From NCBI GenBank assembly GCA_026983525.1, contig JALWHQ010000435.1:1-34842 (forward strand): a DNA stretch of 34,842 nucleotides. The letters are read 5' to 3'. The DNA is from Anaerolineae bacterium. GTDB taxonomy: Bacteria > Chloroflexota > Anaerolineae > JAADDB01. The notes beneath the pieces are model-generated. The model was not told the DNA's origin and searched no databases. It saw only the letters and a list, made by a program, of their open reading frames with translations. Position numbers and translations under genes: made by a program. The stretch's first letter is position 1; each line of letters opens with the position of its first letter. This document shows positions 15,973 through 26,891 of this stretch, piece after piece.

Positions 15973-16649
15973 GCGAACGTTACAACGAGGAATTGTTCCC
16001 GGATCACGACCGCCTGGCGCGGCAGGGGTTTCCGGAGTTTGTTTTTGGGGAAGGGAAAACGCCGCAGCAGGTTGTTGCGGCAATACGGGCGTTGTTAGAA
16101 CGACAGGGGGGCGTTCTGGCGACGCGCGTCTCTCGCGAAGCCGCATCCCTGGCGCGAGCGCAGTTGCCCGGGGTTGAGTACCATGAGCAGGCGCGTGTAT
16201 TGCGCGTAGGCATGTTGCTATCCCCAACTACGATCCCATCCCTTCACATCACTATAACCACCGCCGGTACATCCGACACCGCCGTAGCCGAGGAAGCAGC
16301 GCTGGTAAGTGAATTCCTCGGTCATCGTGTCAGCCGCGTGTACGACGTGGGGGTCGCGGGGTTGCATCGCTTGATGGCTCACCAGGAGGAATTAGCCGAG
16401 GCGGACGCGCTCATCGTTGTCGCGGGTATGGAGGGCGCGCTCCCCTCGGTGGTGGGGGGATTGGTCGGCATTCCGGTGGTGGCAGTTCCCACCAGTGTGG
16501 GCTATGGCGCGCACTTCGGCGGCCTGGCTCCCCTCCTCGCCATGCTCAACAGTTGCGCGTCCGGCGTGGTGGTGGTCAATATCGACAACGGCTTCGGCGC
16601 GGCTTTGGCCGTGCACCGAATGGCCCAGATGCTGCGGAGGCATACATGA
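15969..16649 (+). CDS. larB: LarB, NaAD carboxylase/hydrolase for NPN cofactor synthesis (PurE-like)
   Basis: PurE-like core TTAGTSDTAVAEEA...VVAGMEGALPSVVGGLVGIPVVAVPTSVGYG. ATGA overlap with larE. Confidence 0.88.
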   Translation: MSERYNEELFPDHDRLARQGFPEFVFGEGKTPQQVVAAIRALLERQGGVLATRVSREAASLARAQLPGVEYHEQARVLRVGMLLSPTTIPSLHITITTAGTSDTAVAEEAALVSEFLGHRVSRVYDVGVAGLHRLMAHQEELAEADALIVVAGMEGALPSVVGGLVGIPVVAVPTSVGYGAHFGGLAPLLAMLNSCASGVVVVNIDNGFGAALAVHRMAQMLRRHT

Positions 16650-18028
16650 GCAGGATCGCCTATTTCGACGTTTTTGTGGGGGCAAGCGGGGATATGATCC
16701 TCGGGGCGTTGGTGGATGCCGGCCTTCCCCTACACGTTTTACAAGAAACGGTTGAAGCGCTGGGTCTGGGGAATGCTGTGAGTGTCCAGGCCGAGCGGGT
16801 GCACAAAGGAGCCATTGCAGGGACGAAGGTGACCGTCGTTACCCAGGGGGAGCCCGACCAACCCCACGCCCACCTTCGCCTTCCGGCTTCATCCCCTGAG
16901 GAACACGAGCATTCCCATCGCCACGACCACGCCCCCGATCATGACCACGAGCATCACCATGCCCACACTCACGACCACAGTCACGGTCACGAGCAGCACG
17001 AACATCGCGCCCTGAACGAGATTGTCACCCTGATCAAGGAGGCGGATTTGCCCGACCGGGTGAAGGAGCGGGCCATTGCTGTTTTCCGCCGCTTGGCCGA
17101 GGCCGAGGCGCGTGTACACGGCATCCCCGTTGACGAGATCCACTTTCACGAGGTGGGCGCGCTGGACGCGGTGGTGGACATCGTGGGGTGCGTCATGGGG
17201 CTGCACGCGCTGGGCGTGGAGCGCGTGGTTGCCTCCCCCATCCCCCTGACGCGGGGATACGTGGAGACGGCCCACGGCCGCTTGCCGGTCCCTGCACCGG
17301 CGACGATGATGTTACTGGAGGGCGTGCCCGTGCGCGGGTTGGACTTGGAGGCGGAGACGGTGACCCCTACGGGGGCCGCGCTGCTCACGACCCTGGCCGA
17401 TGCGTTTGGCCCTGTGCCCCCAATGAGGGTGGAACGGGTGGGACATGGTGCCGGAACGATGGACCTTCCCTTGCCCAACATGCTGCGCGTGTTGCTCGGT
17501 GCCCCCGTGTCTGCGCAGGATGAAGGCCCTCATGCCCACGCGGTGGTGTTGCTTTCCACCAACGTGGACGACATGCCGGGAGAATGGTTCGGGCCCCTGT
17601 TCGACGAACTGCTCTCTGCCGGGGCTCTGGACGTTTGGTTCACGCCCGTGCAGATGAAGAAAGGGCGCCCGGGTGTCGTCATCTCTGCCCTCACCTCACC
17701 CGACCGGGCAGGGGCTGTGCGGGATCTCCTGCTGCTGCGAACGACGACTCTGGGGGTGCGCGAGGAACTCCTCACGCGGTGGTGCCTCCCGCGCGAGGAA
17801 CAGGTCGTGAACACCCGGTGGGGGCAGGTGTGCGTGAAGGTAGCCCGCCTTCCCAACGGCACCATGCGCGTCAAGCCCGAATTCGACGATTGTCAGGCGC
17901 TGGCTCGCGAGCACGGCGTCAATGTGTGGGACGTGTACTACGAGGCTGTAGCCCGCTGGCGAGAGGTAGGGAATATGGAAGAGAGGGAGCCAGATAGGAG
18001 TGAAGATTCTGTAAGCCACAACATGTAG
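16646..18028 (+). CDS. larC: LarC, nickel insertase (DUF111 family), single unsplit ORF with a His-rich tract
   Basis: MSRIAYFDVFVGASGDMILGAL is a typical LarC start. His-rich tract EEHEHSHRHDHAPDHDHEHHHAHTHDHSHGHEQHEH; IHFHEVGALDAVVDIVG. ATGA overlap with the larB stop, so start is 16646 rather than 16553. Confidence 0.88.
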   Translation: MSRIAYFDVFVGASGDMILGALVDAGLPLHVLQETVEALGLGNAVSVQAERVHKGAIAGTKVTVVTQGEPDQPHAHLRLPASSPEEHEHSHRHDHAPDHDHEHHHAHTHDHSHGHEQHEHRALNEIVTLIKEADLPDRVKERAIAVFRRLAEAEARVHGIPVDEIHFHEVGALDAVVDIVGCVMGLHALGVERVVASPIPLTRGYVETAHGRLPVPAPATMMLLEGVPVRGLDLEAETVTPTGAALLTTLADAFGPVPPMRVERVGHGAGTMDLPLPNMLRVLLGAPVSAQDEGPHAHAVVLLSTNVDDMPGEWFGPLFDELLSAGALDVWFTPVQMKKGRPGVVISALTSPDRAGAVRDLLLLRTTTLGVREELLTRWCLPREEQVVNTRWGQVCVKVARLPNGTMRVKPEFDDCQALAREHGVNVWDVYYEAVARWREVGNMEEREPDRSEDSVSHNM

Positions 18029-18083
18029 AATCTCTTCCTCTCCTTTCTACCTTCCTCCTTCCTTGCTTATGGCCGTCGGGTGT

Positions 18084-18113
18084 TTATCAAAAGTCCAATG
18101 CCTACGGTATAAT
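18084..18113 (+). promoter_or_regulatory. Candidate promoter for mntA-hepT (and possibly lepA)
   Basis: TTATCA (18084-18089), 18-nt spacer, consensus TATAAT (18108-18113). Confidence 0.4.
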
Positions 18114-18215
18114 CGGAATTTACGAGGCAGGAGTGAGAATTTCCGCTTTCAAATGGATGGGACTGTTAATGTTGCCCAACCTGACCTACGGGTTGACGTA
18201 AGTTTGGAAGTACCG

Positions 18216-18653
18216 ATGGGGGCTGACGTCGAAACAGTGGTAGCCCATGTGCGGGACTATCTCTCCACGCAAGAGGATGTGCTGGCCGCATACCTCTTTG
18301 GTTCGCGCGCGCAGGGCCGCGCGCGACCCCAGAGCGACGTGGACATCGCCGTCCTCCTGCGGGAGGACCTGGACAGCGAAGCGCGCCTGTTCCGGCGGCT
18401 GAGCCTGGGGGATGCTCTTGAGCAACGGCTGGGACGACCGGTGGATTTGGTGGTACTCAACGACGCGCCCCTTCGGCTGCGGCACCAAGTGCTTCGACAC
18501 GGCAAACTCATATTCGAGCGGGATCGGGAGGCGCGCGTTGAGTTCGAGGTGCGTACAGGCAAACTGTACGCCGATATGAAGCCGGTGTACGATTTCTACG
18601 CCCGGGCCACGCTGCAGGAAATTAAGGAGGGGCGCTTTGGCGGCAGAAAGTGA
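18216..18653 (+). CDS. mntA: MntA-type minimal nucleotidyltransferase (antitoxin of a HepT/MntA type VII TA pair)
   Basis: GSX10DXD motif: LFGSRAQGRARPQSDVDIAVLL. Start is uncertain: 18216 gives about 145 aa, 18153 is also possible. The track start 18063 lies upstream of the predicted promoter. Confidence 0.8.
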   Translation: MGADVETVVAHVRDYLSTQEDVLAAYLFGSRAQGRARPQSDVDIAVLLREDLDSEARLFRRLSLGDALEQRLGRPVDLVVLNDAPLRLRHQVLRHGKLIFERDREARVEFEVRTGKLYADMKPVYDFYARATLQEIKEGRFGGRK

Positions 18654-19071
18654 TCCCATTATCGCAGAGCGAATAGGGCGCCTGCGGGAGGAAATCGCGT
18701 ATCTGAAAACTGAGCGTGCGACTGTCTCGTCTTACCAGGAATACGCCAGCAACGTACGCCTTAAGAAAGCCGTCGAGCGTAGCTTGCAGGTGGCTATCGA
18801 GGTCTGCCTGGATATTGGTCGCCGTATCATTGCCGTTGAGGGATTGCGTCACCCAGAGGAAAATCGGGAGGTGTTCGTCGTGCTGTACGAGGCAGGCATC
18901 CTGCCTGGAGACTTACTGCCGGTGTTGATCAACATGGCTCGCTTTCGCAACTTGATCGTGCATGACTATGCACGCGTCGATGATTCGCAGGTCTACGCCA
19001 TCCTCAAGCAACATCTGCATGACTTCGAAGCCTATGCGCGGGCAATTGCGCAATATCTGGAGCAACGATGA
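18637..19071 (+). CDS. hepT: HepT (DUF86/HEPN) RNase toxin
   Basis: RX4HXY motif: [11 protein letters not shown]. 144 aa. 17-nt overlap with mntA, the usual arrangement for this pair. Confidence 0.85.
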
Positions 19072-20876
19072 CCCTAAAGCAGGATCACCTTCGCAACTTT
19101 TCTATCATCGCTCACGTAGATCACGGCAAATCTACCCTCGCGGACCGCTTGCTGGAGATGACAGGCACGGTGGACCCGCGCCAGATGCAAGAGCAGGTCC
19201 TGGACAGCATGGACCTGGAGCGGGAACGCGGGGTAACCATCAAGGCCTCACCCGTGCGCATGTTCTACGAGTACAAGGGCGATGTCTACGAACTGAACCT
19301 GATCGACACGCCCGGTCACGTAGACTTTACCTACGAAGTGAGCCGCGCCCTGGCCGCCTGCGAAGGGGCCATCCTGGTCGTGGACGCCAGCCAAGGGATC
19401 GAAGCGCAGACCCTCGCCAATCTCTTCCTGGCCCTGGAGAACGATCTGGAAATCATCCCTGTGGTGAACAAAATCGACCTCCCCGCGGCCCAACCCGACC
19501 TGGTCGCGGGAGAGATTGCCAACCTGTTGGGAATCGATGCGGACGAGGTCCTGCGGGTTTCGGCCAAGGAAGGCATCAACGTCGACAAAGTGCTGGAGGC
19601 AGTGGTGGAGCGCATCCCGCCCCCGCGAGGCAATCCCACCGCGCCCCTTCGGGCCCTTGTTTTCGATTCCCAATACGATCCTTACAAGGGCGTGGTGGCC
19701 TCGGTACGGGTCGTGGACGGCGTGCTGCGCATGGGGGACATGTTGCGCATGATGAGCACCGGCGCGGACTTCGAGCCCCTGGAGGTGGGCGTTTTTGCAC
19801 CGGACATGCGTCCGACCGGGGAACTGCGTACCGGGGAAGTGGGGTACGTGGCTACCGGGCTGAAATCCGTGCGCGATGCCCGCGTCGGTGACACGATTAC
19901 CTTGGCAGCGACCCCTGCCCGTGACCCCTTGCCCGGCTACAAGCACATGAAGCCGATGGTTTTCGCGGGCATCTACCCCGTGGAGAGCGACGATTATAAT
20001 GCCCTGCGTGATGCATTGGAGAAGTTGCAACTCAACGACGCGGCCCTTGTGTTCGAGCCTGAAACGTCGCAAGCCCTGGGCTTTGGGTTCCGCGCCGGCT
20101 TCCTGGGCATGTTCCACATGGAGATTGTGCAGGAGCGCCTGGAGCGGGAGTACGGGTTGGACGTGCTCTTTACCGCGCCCTCTGTGGCGTACAAGGTACT
20201 CACGACCACGGGGGAAGAAATCACCATTCACAGTCCCGCCCAGTTGCCGGAGCCGACGAAAATCGAGGAAATTCGCGAGCCCTGGGTGCGGCTTGAGATT
20301 TACACGCCGGTGGATTACATTGGGCCCCTTATGGATCTGGTGATGAAACGGCGGGGTGTATTCCGGCGTCAGGAGTACTTGGATCAACGCCGCGTGCTCC
20401 TGGAGTACGACATCCCCCTGAGCGAGATCTTGGTGGATTTCTACAACGAATTGAAAGCCCGCTCACGCGGGTACGCGTCCATGGACTATCACTTCCTTGA
20501 GTACCGGCCGGGGGACCTGGTCAAGTTGGACATTCTGGTGGCCGGACAGCCGGTGGACGCGCTGTCCATTATCGTACACCGGGATCAGGCGTACCGCAAG
20601 GGACAAAAATTGGTCTCCAAAATGAAGGAGGTCATCCCCCGGCAGTTGTTCGACGTGCCCATTCAGGCGGCCATTGGAAAGAAGGTCATTTCGCGCGCCA
20701 ATGTGAAGGCCTTGCGCAAGGATGTGTTGGCTAAGTGTTATGGCGGTGACGTTACGCGCAAGCGAAAATTGCTGGAAAAGCAGAAGCGAGGTAAGAAGCG
20801 CCTGAAGATGATCGGGCATGTGGAGATTCCCCAAGAGGCCTTCATGAGCGTGTTGCGGCTGGAGGAGGAATCTTGA
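19068..20876 (+). CDS. lepA: Translation elongation factor 4 (LepA)
   Basis: [33 protein letters not shown], and the LepA-specific C-terminal domain ending [24 protein letters not shown] overlap with the hepT stop. Confidence 0.97.
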
Positions 20877-22426
20877 CCGCGGTGCTCTCCCTCGCGCTGA
20901 CGCCTTGGGGACCGGTGTTGGTGTTGCTCCTTGGCGCGGCGGCCTTGTTCCCGGTCAACGTTCGTCGGTTGCCGCGCGCGGTACAGGTGGTGACCATCGC
21001 CATTCTGTTCCTGGCCTGGACATGGGTGATGGCCTGGAGACTTTTACCCGCCCCTGTGGTAAGCGCCGAAGTGACGCGTGCCCCTCTGGATGTGGCTGTT
21101 TATGCTTTATTTCGAGTGGATACAACGACATGGCCTTTCTCGGCGACGGTAATGACGGTGGGGCTCATCGGCGCGCTCCTTTGGCCCACACGTCCGCCAA
21201 TTGGCCGCGTTTCCGGCCCCAGCGTGGGACTCATGTTTATTGTCGGCGCGTTGCTTATGACTATGGCAGGTAACCTCTTGGCTCTCTTTCTGGGGTGGGT
21301 GGTGATGGATGCGGCCTATCTTGCCTTGCTCCTCGAAGCGCACCCGCGGGCCACCGGGCGCGGCGTTGGGTTGACGTTGTTGGGCGCGCTGTTGCTCTGG
21401 GGCATTGTGGCGTTACTCCCCACCGACGTAAGCATCCAGCCCTGGGAACAACTCGTGCTGCCCGGATGGGCCCTGGGGGTGCTGGGGCTGAGCGTTTGGC
21501 TGCGCATTGGCGTGTATCCCCTGCACCGACCGCGTGACTTGCCCCTGCCCGGATTCCCTCCCCCGTGGTTGTGGTTGGATGTCATAGCCGGAGGGAGTTG
21601 GCTGGTCCGTTGGGCGCTGCTCATCGGTGCGAGCACCTTCTGGCAGAACAGGACGTGGTTGGTCGTGGCGGTCTTCGCCTTCTTTGGTAGCGCGTTGGCC
21701 GCATGGCTTTCCCCCTCTGTGGAGCGTCGGCTGGAATGGGCCCTTATTCATCGCACCAGCGTCTTCCTTTTATTACCCCTCGCCTCCCCCCCACCGTGGG
21801 ATGCCTTGGTCTTGTCCCTTGGGATAGCCATTGTCTTAGCAGGGGGGGCGCTTCTGACCTTGCGACATATGGGGCTTCCATTTGCCCAACAAATTGCAAG
21901 TGTGTTAGCGACCCTCATCTTTTGGGGGATGCCCTTTACTGCGGGAGCCCCGGCACGGCTTGTGATAGCCGGGGGGATGCAGTGGTACGTGTGGGTAGGT
22001 TTCTTGTTGATGTTGGGAGACGCCCTACTGTTGGGGACGCTTTTGGTGCCCGATATAGGACGGGGAAATGATGGGGGGGACTGGCGAGGGGCTTTGCGTG
22101 TAGGTATTTTGCTATTGCCTGTCATCCTCATCCCGGCGTTCCTCCCCATCCCTCCTAAACCGCCGTCCACTTGGCTTTGGGCGACGCTGCTCCCTCTCGT
22201 GCTCGGTGTTCTTGTGGCTTGGCAGTACGAGCGTATTTTCGTGGACGTGCGCGAGTGGGTGTGGGGGATGGAGGTTTTGACGTATCTTCGTCCCCTGGAG
22301 GTGGGGGGCCGCGGTCTAACTGTGTGGATGCTAACAGCCCTGGGGGGCATTGTGACCTTACTCGAGGGGGCGGCATGGTTGGGGTGGATCTTTCTCTTCG
22401 GCCTGGTATTGCTTCTCTGGCGATAG
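20873..22426 (+). CDS. Polytopic membrane protein, divergent NuoL/M/N-MrpD (proton antiporter-like) fold candidate
   Basis: TTG start overlaps the lepA TGA (TTGA) directly after GGAGGAGGAA. By-eye family motifs: [47 protein letters not shown]. 33 Trp and 1 Lys in 517 aa. The CDS is solid; the family call is tentative. Confidence 0.55.
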
Positions 22427-22445
22427 AGATTTGTGAGACCGGCCT

Positions 22446-23099
22446 ATGAACGGTAATGATCTTTGGCATGTACTGATGAATACGCGTTGGCCAGACATCC
22501 CGCGTCTGACGGCGGGATGGGAATGGGCTGCGCTGGGGGTATTGATTGCAGCCGTGGGAGTTCTCGTGTTGTGGGAGGACTGGCGTGTAGCGCTCTTAGG
22601 TTGGGTGGCTGTAGGGGCTGGGATGAGCCTCCTCCTGGTACGGTTGGTGCCGGTTCCTTGGGCACTTTCGAGACTGCTCGTAGTCGGCTTGGAAGGCACG
22701 CTATTTTGGTTGGGGGCGCGTCGTTGGCCTCGTTCCCCGCTACGTCTGGGCGGGGGACTGTGGGCGCGCTTACCTATCCTTGCTGTTGCGGGGATTGCTG
22801 TTTGGCAGTTGCAGCCTTATGTGCGCATCATGTGGCCCGACTCCGGGCGCGGTAATGCCGCGCTGGTTTTGACCATAGGAGGGATCCTGCTCATGGCCTT
22901 GCACGGCGACGGACTGCGAGGCATTCTCGGCCTCCTCCTCTGGCTGAACGCGACGATGCTTACCCTAGCCCAATTGCCCATTCCCACCGATTGGTTCGTC
23001 CTGTTGAGTTTGCTCGACCTCCTGATTGCTACTGTGGGCAGCATTGGCCTTTCCAGTGAAGGCGGCTGGGCCCGGCTGATGCGGAGGGTGACGCAATGA
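22446..23099 (+). CDS. Membrane protein with a C-terminal NuoK/MrpC-like segment lacking both carboxylates
   Basis: ILGLLLWLNATMLTLA compares with NuoK LIGLEIMINASALAF, and IATVGSIGL with AAAEASIGL (E. coli NuoK from memory). 16 Trp and 0 Lys in 217 aa. Weak SD, so the start is uncertain. Confidence 0.5.
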   Translation: MNGNDLWHVLMNTRWPDIPRLTAGWEWAALGVLIAAVGVLVLWEDWRVALLGWVAVGAGMSLLLVRLVPVPWALSRLLVVGLEGTLFWLGARRWPRSPLRLGGGLWARLPILAVAGIAVWQLQPYVRIMWPDSGRGNAALVLTIGGILLMALHGDGLRGILGLLLWLNATMLTLAQLPIPTDWFVLLSLLDLLIATVGSIGLSSEGGWARLMRRVTQ

Positions 23100-24445
23100 C
23101 CGGGGTAGCGTGGCTGCTTGAAGGGGCCATTGTCATTCTGCTGGGAACAATCCTCTTGAGCCGTTGGCCACGATTACAGGGCGCGTGGTGGGTCATCACG
23201 GGGGGATTCTTCTTGTGGGCTTTGGCCACGTGGCCTGGGGATCGGCTCATTCTCTTTCTTGGGCGTCCTTTGTATATGGAGCAACCTTTGACATGGGGGC
23301 ACCTTTCTCTGGCTTTGGATGGCCCCGCGCGCGAGGGCGTACGTATGATCTTGTGGGCCTTTGTACTTTGGGGGGGGATCTCCCTTCTCTTTCCCTCGTG
23401 GGGAGAGGGGGGAGCCTGGGCCAGCCTTGCGTTAATAGGCGGATTATTGGCATTGATGGTGACTTCCCTTTGGGCAGTGGGGTGGGCAGTGGCGATATGG
23501 GCTGCGCTGGTCGTGCTGGTAACATTGGGGGGACATTCGGCTCGGGGACTGGGCGTATGGCAGTGGTTGACCCCTTGGGTAGGCGCGACTCTTATCCTGT
23601 TCCTCCTCCTCATCTGGCCCGATCCGAACACGTCCGGCCCCGAAGCATGGCGAGTGCAATTGGTGGCTGTGGCCTTGGTATTGTGGGCGGGACTTGTCCC
23701 GCTCCATGTCGGTAGCGTCAACCTCACGGCTTTTGCCCGCCCCTTGGGCAGCGCCTGGCTGTGGTGGAGCCATTCTATCGTGGTGCTGACCGTGTTCCAC
23801 CGCGTGGATTTTCTACCGGGAATGGATGCGGCTTTCTGGCGGGCTCAGCCCTTCTTGCAAGTCGTGGGAATTGTGACCTTGGGCTGGGCAGGGATGGCTG
23901 CGCTGGGTGCGCGCGATGTAGGACGTATCACTGCTTACGCCGTGTTGCACAACTGGGCGCTCACCCTATTGTTGTGGATTGCTACCCCACAACGTGAGGA
24001 TGTGGTGCGTTGGGCCCTGGCTGTCCGTTTCGTGGGAGTGTACGTGACTACGTTGGGGTTAACCGCGCTGTTGCGAGAGGAGTATCGTCGTACGTTCGAT
24101 AGTCTGAGCGGTTGGGCGCGACGGCGTCCATGGACGGTGGCAGCATGGACTATTGGGGTAGGCACGTTGGTAGGCGCGCCCTTCACGCCAGGCATTTGGA
24201 CCCAGTGGATGGTCCACCGTTTGCCGATGGAGAGTCCCCTTGTGCCTTGGGGGAGTTTCGTGGGCTCTGCCGGGGTGATGCTCGGAGTGAGTCGGGCTTT
24301 GTTGGTTCTTTGGGGCCCCCTGCATAACCCGCTTTTGGTTAGGGAGGAAGGTTTGGCGCGAGCACTTATGTGGGGTATCGTAATAACTGTGGTCGTACTT
24401 GCTCTTATGCCTTCATGGGCCAACTCTCTGGGCGGACTTCTTTAG
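23096..24445 (+). CDS. Polytopic membrane protein, NuoN/MrpD-like with all four conserved charged residues replaced
   Basis: ATGA overlap with the upstream gene after GGAGGGTG. Compared with E. coli NuoN from memory: [10 protein letters not shown] vs [29 protein letters not shown] vs [50 protein letters not shown] vs [30 protein letters not shown]. 37 Trp and 0 Lys in 449 aa. Confidence 0.6.
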   Translation: [449 protein letters not shown]

Positions 24446-25749: not shown

Positions 25750-25992
25750 ATGGCTGTTGACCAGGAACTTCTGGAAATTTTGCGGTGTCCGGCGTGTGTG
25801 CGCAACGGCCCGGACGCGGGCATGCTCGATTTGGTGCGCGATGGCACCTGGCTGGTGTGTCGCGATTGCGGCCGCAAGTACCCTATTCGTGAAGACATCC
25901 CCGTGATGCTCATCGAAGAAGGGGACAAGTGGAAGGACACGCCAGTCGAGGAATTGCCGGAGCCGGGGCCGCTGGTTCCTGAGAGCGCGTAG
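25750..25992 (+). CDS. Trm112/UPF0434-family small zinc-ribbon protein
   Basis: [11 protein letters not shown]...[34 protein letters not shown]. Confidence 0.8.
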
Positions 25993-26000
25993 GATGCCCC

Positions 26001-26891
26001 ATGCCCCTCTTTGGCGGCATTGAGGCCGGGGGAACCAAGTTCGTTTGTGTGGTGGGGAGCGGTCCAACGCGCATCCTCGCGCGCGAGCGCTTCCCTACCA
26101 CTACGCCCCAGGAGACGCTGGCGCGCGTGGTGGACTTCTTCCGTCCCTATGCCGATGACCTCCAAGCCCTCGGCGTTGGATCCTTTGGCCCTGTGGACTT
26201 GCACCCTGACTCGCCCACGCATGGGTTCATCACCACGACCCCCAAGCCCGGCTGGCAACACACGAACGTGAAAGGCTTCCTTGAGGACGCGCTACACGTC
26301 CCCGTAATGTTCGAGACGGACGTGAACGCGGCCGCGTGGGGGGAACACCGCTGGGGCGCGGCCCAGGACGTGGACACGTTCGTCTACGTGACCGTCGGCA
26401 CGGGCATTGGGGGCGGGGCGGTGGTCAACGGCCGCTTGGTTCACGGCTTGGTGCACCCCGAAATGGGCCACATGCGCGTCCCCCACGATTGGGAAGCCGA
26501 TCCCTTCCAGGGTACGTGTCCCTTCCATGGAGATTGCCTGGAAGGGCTGGCAGCCGGGCCAGCCCTTGCCGCGCGCTGGGGCATGCGTGGTGAACTCTTG
26601 CCCGACGACCACCCGGCTTGGGACTTGGAAGCGCGTTATCTGGGCCTGGCCGTTGCCAACCTGGTATGCGTGCTTTCTCCGCAGCGGATCATCCTGGGGG
26701 GCGGCGTGATGCGTCGGACTACCCTGTTCCCCCGTATCCGGCGGGTGGTGCAAGATGTCCTGGCCGGTTATGTTCGCGATCCGGCGCTTGAGGAGCAAAT
26801 CGAGGCTTACATCGTGCCCCCGGCCTTGGGCGATGATGCCGGGGTGTTGGGCGCGCTGGCGCTGGCCATGGACGCGCCGAGCCAGGACTGA
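26001..26891 (+). CDS. ROK-family fructokinase
   Basis: [17 protein letters not shown]-terminus as in Bacillus GmuE/ScrK-type ROK fructokinases. ROK zinc motif HPEMGHMRV...[10 protein letters not shown]. Confidence 0.87.

Follow-up and report, generated by a model that had tools for sequence, protein, structure and literature searches.

A contig of 34,842 nt from an Anaerolineae bacterium (Chloroflexota; assembly GCA_026983525.1, contig JALWHQ010000435.1), called the window over its whole length, raises the question why the gene of elongation factor 4 (EF4, lepA) is followed without interruption by three genes for tryptophan-rich, almost lysine-free membrane proteins, and what these proteins may do. 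We name them A517, B217 and C449 after their lengths in amino acids and refer to them together as the trio. The trio is a degenerate variant of the Mrp/complex-I antiporter module and not a categorically new system. With slightly better than even confidence we read it as an autonomous, degenerate Mrp-derived membrane complex, which would carry out no canonical H+/Na+ translocation and would serve as a platform or conformational element.

Homologue searches among 5.8 billion proteins returned 12-16 clusters per protein, unnamed or annotated as 'hypothetical', and from these homologues alignments of the C family (A1), the A family (A2) and the B family (A3) were built. A517 alone finds no match in Pfam or, by phmmer, in the PDB, and Pfam matches 0/15 members of its family. 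Its AlphaFold2 (AF2) model (pLDDT 83, pTM 0.82) matches 180 PDB chains at E<=0.001 in Foldseek, with ND5, NuoL, NdhF and MrpA at the top (best E 1.5e-11, TMq 0.6-0.72; 7d3u_A and 9a6h_B among the matches). The model shows a periplasmic beta-hairpin at 62-82, helix breaks at 213-229 and 352-359 which correspond to the discontinuous transmembrane helices (TMs) 7 and 12, and, at low confidence, a helix of 40 residues (431-470) with terminal TM helices after it, as in the C-terminal extension of L/MrpA-type subunits. By profile (A2), the MBS subunit 6u8y_X is matched at E 3.4e-4 in the N-terminal ~120 residues (64-180). The predicted fold of A517 is of the NuoL/ND5/MrpA type.

C449 alone likewise has no match in Pfam or, by phmmer, in the PDB, and its NCBIfam matches to MrpD/NuoN are weak (E about 2e-5, 'monovalent cation/H+ antiporter subunit D' models). 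The C-family profile (A1) retrieves MbhH (6cfw_H, E 6.7e-10), mycobacterial NuoN (8e9g_N, 1.1e-6), an MBS subunit (5e-6) and ND5/ND2 chains from the PDB, the matches spanning residues 189-446. PF00361 is matched by 6/11 family members (best 8.6e-8) and by a protein of the more distant sister family described below, which reaches 36.7 bits at a gathering threshold of 21.5. Judged by these profiles, the C449 family is a relative of PF00361 and antiporter-like. The resemblance to antiporter-like subunits that a sequence-only reading of the window had seen in the two large proteins is supported by profiles for the C449 family and by Foldseek for the fold of A517, whose sequence evidence is weak.

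The same reading had likened the 217-aa protein to NuoK/MrpC, for which HMM and fold tests gave no support. At E<=10, PF00420 was found in none of 43 members, namely B217, 12 orthologues and 30 distant relatives from an exhaustive representative search, and neither of two B profiles (A3 and A5) retrieved a NuoK, MrpC or ND4L chain from the PDB at E<=10. The AF2 model (pLDDT 87, seven helices) gave nothing in the PDB at E<=0.001 in Foldseek and no K, ND4L or MrpC chain in the top 50, although a local three-helix resemblance is possible. With Pfam, two PDB profile searches and Foldseek all negative, B217 was rejected as a NuoK/MrpC subunit. The sole PDB match of the 41-sequence B-family profile (A5) was MbsD (6u8y_D, E 0.0097), over its whole chain (query 19-101). 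Against Pfam MbhD, B217 reaches E 0.21 and a relative 0.017, both below the 27.2-bit gathering threshold. The invariant DWR motif of the B family aligns with EWR of MbsD, and the invariant R76 of B217 with MbsD Glu58, the key conserved charge in the MBS structure (PMC7684303). MbsD itself is a three-TM subunit packed beside an antiporter-like subunit (PMC7684303). These matches weakly suggest that B217 combines a DUF4040-like (PF13244) N-terminal half of three TMs with four further helices. Distant B217-like proteins of the cluster of P0047 (P0085, P0087, P0094, P0095, P0098) are named 'phosphate/sulfate permease' in JGI/IMG; Pfam gives no support for this name on B217-like proteins, which makes it probably an annotation error that has been passed on. 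Neither Pfam nor NCBIfam has a model for the A and B families, and their members are annotated as hypothetical or under this permease name.

In Mrp, MBS and complex I, the Lys/Glu chain, MbsD Glu58 and the helix HL are key to function or structure (PMC7684303). At the canonical positions, a canonical Lys or Glu is found in 0 of about 20 A-like and 0 of more than 20 C-like proteins. In the A family, the TM5 Glu position is hydrophobic, with D/E one turn on (+3) in 11/15 members (D146 in A517); the TM7 Lys position is Arg in 11/15 (R211) and Y/F in one subclade; the TM8 position is V/A next to D236; and the TM12 Lys position is Arg in 14/15 (R362), Q in the sister family. In the C family, the TM5 position is A/G (A131 in C449), the TM7 position, which precedes the Pro of P-L-H by five residues, is W/L/V/T (W197), and the TM8 position is S/T (S227), preceded by H in 7/11, Q in 3 and R in 1 (H226 in C449). 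The TM12 position (G-x-x-x-K) is Q in 10/11 (Q370) and H/R in the sister family.

For C449, the profile alignments reproduce the motif alignments at TM5, TM7 and TM12 on which the sequence-only reading had based its loss of Lys and Glu. One of its motifs has to be reassigned: DVGRITAY, which it set against NIKRLLGY, is the D-x-K-R motif, 79 residues after the TM7 Lys in the NuoN chain, and not the TM8 Lys. The central TM8 Lys of the NuoN chain lies 30 residues after the TM7 Lys and aligns with S227. C449 has no Lys at either place, and a His beside the TM8 position. The term 'charge-dead' does not suit A517: the canonical Glu and Lys are absent, but with its Arg at TM7 and TM12 and the Asp/Glu near TM5 it is Lys-to-Arg substituted. 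Four A orthologues (P0020-P0023) without the TM5-adjacent acid (N/H) are the same four that have no TM7 Arg (Y/F). This joint loss of D146 and R211 fits a retained TM5-TM7 ion pair; as proof of such a pair it was rejected, being weak and confined to one subclade.

The composition of the trio is unusual, too. On recounting, the numbers given earlier were exact, with 33, 16 and 37 Trp in A517, B217 and C449 (6.4, 7.4 and 8.2%) and 1, 0 and 0 Lys, that is a single Lys in 1183 residues. LepA has 33 Lys and 1 Trp. Three other predicted membrane proteins in the window contain 2.4-3.7% Trp and 1.4-2.1% Lys, from which ~17-25 Lys would be expected in 1183 residues against the one observed; relative to this local background, Trp is 2-3 times higher and Lys at least 10 times lower. 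Genome Arg preference or hydrophobicity does not explain the bias. That the neighbouring proteins are Lys-rich holds for LepA (5.5% Lys), while the others are only moderate (1-5.6%). The core family keeps both traits (Trp 5-9%, Lys 0-4 per protein), and 25 Trp of C449 are invariant. The C-like sister proteins have 0-1 Lys. Trp amounts to 2.9-4.9% in sister-family proteins as against 6-9% in the core, and Trp richness was rejected as a hallmark of the whole family, since it marks the core family only. The AT skew is about -0.33 to -0.36 over 21000-24000 and roughly 0 elsewhere in the window, because the hydrophobic residues have T-rich second codon positions on the coding strand; it is no feature in its own right.

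Among known systems, Mrp (Mnh/Sha/Pha) has the same gene order, with an L-type subunit, small subunit(s) including a DUF4040-like segment and a D/N-type subunit. The trio differs in having three genes only; among the genes at the trio loci, to which this comparison was confined, MrpE/F/G and a detectable MrpC/NuoK were not found at any locus. Its DUF4040-like part has a gene of its own, in which four additional helices are joined to it, whereas in Mrp it is the C-terminus of MrpA, and the trio is extremely Trp-rich and Lys-poor with all canonical Lys/Glu replaced. When sequences are compared with the PDB, each of the three proteins finds its best match in MBH or MBS of Pyrococcus furiosus (C in 6cfw_H, A in 6u8y_X, B in 6u8y_D). 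In contrast to these complexes, the trio has near it neither peripheral-arm genes of a hydrogenase or sulfane reductase nor an anchor like MbsM/NuoH, does not keep the proton-path residues of MbsH and MbsH', and has R76 in place of MbsD Glu58. With NuoL/M/N of complex I (ND5/ND4/ND2) it has in common the 14-TM fold, discontinuous TM7 and TM12, the L-type C-terminal extension, the P-(F/L)-H and G-x-P-x-x-x-G motifs and an Arg at the end of TM8. The chain of Glu-TM5, Lys-TM7, Lys/His-TM8 and Lys/Glu-TM12 and a nuo context are absent, however, and the lateral helix of A517 is much shorter than that of NuoL and poorly predicted. A literature search found no description of such a trio or of an operon of lepA with antiporter-like genes.

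In the preferred reading, the trio descends from the MrpA / MrpA-C-terminal (DUF4040) / MrpD part found in complexes of the Mrp, MBH and MBS types. If arranged as in Mrp, A517, B217 and C449 would lie side by side in the membrane, where the C-terminal amphipathic helix of A517 and its terminal TM may tie the three subunits together. The canonical titratable chain is gone, its positions being neutral in C449 (A, W, S, Q), Arg/Asp in A517 and changed from Glu to Arg in B217. A canonical proton relay is argued against because Arg does not deprotonate in the physiological range. From this chemistry, ion translocation by the Mrp/complex-I mechanism would most likely be lost, and the trio would probably be a platform in the membrane, static or conformational. 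In one small clade, to which the window belongs, the module has been fused behind lepA with a 4-nt overlap, which would lead to its co-expression with EF4 there.

Several points weigh against this reading. A non-canonical ion path could be formed in C449 by H226, Q370, H374 and H204, and in A517 by D146, R211, D236 and R362. Residues 460-510 of A517, in the region of the lateral helix, are modelled at a pLDDT of 50-64. C449 is placed by sequence profiles; its hhalign comparison with A517 is collinear over 307 columns and not significant (E 0.15, probability 0.4), and paralogy of the two on this ground was rejected. The term 'scaffold' was reached by elimination. Finally, the translational coupling to lepA, perfectly conserved in three genomes, could matter for function within their clade.

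An alternative is that the trio is an active cation or proton translocator, a minimal Mrp with a non-canonical path of Arg, Asp, His, Gln, Asn and water and perhaps with Trp cation-pi sites. The antiporter fold with broken TM7 and TM12, the P-L-H and G-P-x-T-x-G motifs and the beta-hairpin are all retained, the A517 TM5 acid and TM7 base (D146/R211) are lost together, and a His stands next to the TM8 position in C449 and at the TM12 position in sister C proteins. Yet in neither large subunit does any member retain a canonical Lys, and Arg is no proton shuttle. The C449 replacements at TM5 and TM7 are hydrophobic or small and, at TM7, not conserved (W/L/V/T), MrpE/F/G and a MrpC/NuoK-like subunit are missing from all loci, and the D146/R211 covariation, coming from a single subclade, counts as one evolutionary event. 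We regard active translocation as unlikely, while granting it a real share of the probability.

What the trio may work with can be asked from its genomic contexts, which were collected by exact-protein look-ups, a GTDB scan and a metagenome scan and labelled gene by gene with local hidden Markov models. The trio occurs in 3 GTDB species representatives and, wherever the source organism is named, in Chloroflexota (Anaerolineae and relatives). The order A-B-C is kept in all ~30 distinct loci long enough to show it. These include a sister family, with 23-35% identity between its C proteins and C449 and with one named member among its loci, from Anaerolineae. Since the open reading frames (ORFs) are intact and collinear with many invariant W/R/P/G positions at 40-73% identity, the trio is under purifying selection.

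Downstream of the trio, the two families differ. In 7 of ~11 independent core loci a GNAT of 330-347 aa directly follows C (window, L001, L004/5, L008, L010, L011, L017). The GNAT of the window has a RimI/NAT-like N-terminal domain and a further C-terminal half without assignment; as a true RimI it was rejected, reaching 54 bits against a cut-off of 86.4 at twice the length of RimI. In at least nine sister loci an HMG-CoA (hydroxymethylglutaryl-coenzyme A) reductase (PF00368, E down to 2e-102) follows, usually together with a gene of roughly 350 aa resembling the archaeal type of HMG-CoA synthase, in a conserved A-B-C-hmgR-hmgS block. The reductase was found downstream of the C-like gene in L015, L020-L024, L025, L026, L028, L031, L034, L035 and L037. 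Some loci have neither partner: in L009 a class A penicillin-binding protein (transglycosylase/transpeptidase; PBP1) lies 4 nt after C in place of the GNAT, in L002 there is AFOR, encoded on the opposite strand, and in L030 recA.

From these neighbours the trio might be seen as a partner of the GNAT or of HMG-CoA reductase and synthase, providing the membrane anchor or channel in a process that depends on acyl-CoA or is related to isoprenoid lipids. GNAT, HMG-CoA reductase and synthase and coaD are all CoA-linked enzymes. GNAT and coaD directly adjoin the trio, and the reductase, with or without the synthase-like gene, follows it directly or very near by; in L004, with coaD directly upstream and the GNAT downstream, CoA-related genes flank the trio. 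The neighbour sets of the two families do not overlap, however, and each may be the inherited gene order of one lineage. Neither GNAT nor HMG-CoA reductase has a known need for an antiporter-like partner, and the loci named above do without both. An escape of the trio from acetylation by the neighbouring GNAT was also considered as the cause of its Lys loss, and rejected, as sister proteins without a GNAT neighbour are equally Lys-poor. A CoA-related role is in our judgement distinctly unlikely.

Upstream, the coupling that gave rise to the question is real. The TTGA overlap, the 19-nt gap and the ATGA overlap described by the sequence-only reading were all confirmed by the ORF map and by reading of the junctions (Table 1). 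The 3' end of lepA reads ...CTGGAGGAGGAATCTTGA, and its stop TGA overlaps the start of A517, the TTG of this terminal TTGA, the overlap being 4 nt. A Shine-Dalgarno-like run, GGAGGAGG, lies 4-11 nt 5' of this start within the last lepA codons (LEEES and stop). The TTG start is supported because the N-termini are conserved in homologues (MT.(V/L)..., with T10, P11 and P14 invariant). The gap of 19 nt separates A517 from B217 (22427-22445), and the ATGA overlap joins B217 to C449. Consensus scans for internal promoters or terminators between lepA and the trio, or between the trio and the GNAT gene, did not rise above shuffle expectation.

On this coupling rests the proposal that EF4 has in the trio a membrane dock or ionic-stress sensor of its own, by which it would be held or released at the membrane. 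EF4 of E. coli is reported to be membrane-associated, the start of A517 with its Shine-Dalgarno run is embedded in lepA, and canonical pumping by the trio seems to be out of reach. But lepA precedes the trio in only 3 of ~30 loci, namely the window, L011 (A protein 73% identical) and L001 (66%), all of the closest clade (A517 at least 66% identical), and it is in these three that the 19-nt junction CTGGAGGAGGAATCTTGAC is identical, being absent from all other trio loci. No lepA was found upstream in L004, L006/L016, L008, L009, L010 or any sister locus. In the more distant core members and throughout the sister family other genes take this place: coaD in L004, a gene of 922 aa transcribed divergently in L008, an M48 peptidase gene, likewise divergent, with FTCD (formiminotransferase) directly upstream in L009 and L010, the small subunit of ribonucleotide reductase in L013, and a VIT and von Willebrand factor A protein (874-922 aa) directly upstream on the same strand in the sister loci L026 and L028. 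Moreover, lepA is universal in bacteria and the trio is confined to a rare lineage, and between the window and L001 LepA is 93% identical as against 55-66% for the trio, which gives no sign of co-evolution. The description 'dedicated to lepA' is not supported, the linkage being absent beyond the immediate clade. The coupling does not define the trio and has the look of an operon fusion specific to one lineage. In E. coli, too, lepA is followed in the same operon by a membrane protein gene of unrelated function, lepB for signal peptidase I; the window differs in the antiporter-like nature of the trio, in the 4-nt overlap and in the restriction of this overlap to three genomes. A role as EF4 dock is very improbable. 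For EF4 biology the result is mostly negative, as only three genomes have the operon arrangement behind the attractive idea of a dock.

That the trio consists of decaying pseudogenes or mis-called ORFs in a T-rich stretch, as the odd composition and the want of Pfam matches for the window proteins might suggest, has practically no probability and is refuted by conservation: orthologues with as little as 23% identity are intact and collinear in ~30 loci, and dozens of residues are invariant. The AF2 models of A517 and B217, which are confident, also speak against it.

Table 1. Coordinates of the trio, its junction and neighbouring or comparable features (positions in the window unless a locus is named).
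Feature	Position	Strand	Basis or remark
lepA (EF4), 602 aa	19068..20876	+	TIGR01393 E 4e-294, above cut-off
Coupling junction GGAGGAGGAATCTTGA	20859..20876	+	Direct sequence reading
A517, NuoL/MrpA-type antiporter-like membrane protein (predicted), TTG start	20873..22426	+	AF2 model, Foldseek
A517 residue 146	21308-21310		
A517 residue 211	21503-21505		
B217, seven-helix small subunit (predicted)	22446..23099	+	AF2 model, weak MbsD profile match
C449, MrpD/NuoN/MbhH-type antiporter-like membrane protein (predicted)	23096..24445	+	Family profile, PF00361 relatives
GNAT acetyltransferase, 347 aa	24578..25621	+	rimI TIGR01575 E 1.8e-14 (below cut-off), PDB GNAT matches
LarC	16553-18028		LarC1 and LarC2 domains
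MntA and HepT	18063-19071		E 2e-32 (MntA), E 6e-35 (HepT)
Trm112-like zinc-ribbon protein and ROK-family fructokinase	25750-26891		
The same two genes in L011	6503-7650		
M48 peptidase and FTCD in L009	6718-7854	minus	One of two fairly distant core-family loci
M48 peptidase and FTCD in L010	6670-7854	minus	The other of these two loci
VIT and von Willebrand factor A protein in L026	1554-4319	same as trio	Sister family
VIT and von Willebrand factor A protein in L028	1863-4484	same as trio	Sister family

Some features around the operon were noted in their own right. Directly 5' of lepA lies a type VII toxin-antitoxin pair of an MntA adenylyltransferase antitoxin and a HepT RNase toxin, in which the HepT ORF (end at 19071) and the start of lepA (19068) share 4 nt. 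As the pair is absent upstream of lepA in L001, it seems to have been inserted into the leader of the operon. Further upstream, LarC, a protein of nickel-pincer cofactor biosynthesis, contains a long His/Asp/Glu-rich insertion, HEHSHRHDHAPDHDHEHHHAHTHDHSHGHEQHEH, which is presumably a metal-binding region. After the GNAT gene, a Trm112-like zinc-ribbon protein and a ROK-family fructokinase are encoded in both the window and L011, so that local synteny with the closest relative extends beyond the trio.

The preferred reading, that of a degenerate Mrp-derived platform, has a bolder form. Here the trio would be a hitherto unrecognised class of Mrp-derived complex, a re-purposed, non-pumping platform or sensor which recruits EF4, the GNAT or the mevalonate enzymes according to clade, or acts on the isoprenoid/lipid phase, with an invariant Trp/Arg lattice in place of the Lys/Glu wire; we consider this form quite unlikely. 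Antiporter-like subunits have been studied almost entirely as ion-translocating modules of complex I, Mrp, MBH and MBS, with the Lys/Glu chain as their accepted hallmark. In keeping the fold while having dropped the chain, the core family and the sister family amount to a natural 'charge-swap' experiment. The trio could therefore show what this fold is used for without a proton relay, be it scaffolding, membrane shaping, sensing or a new transport chemistry.

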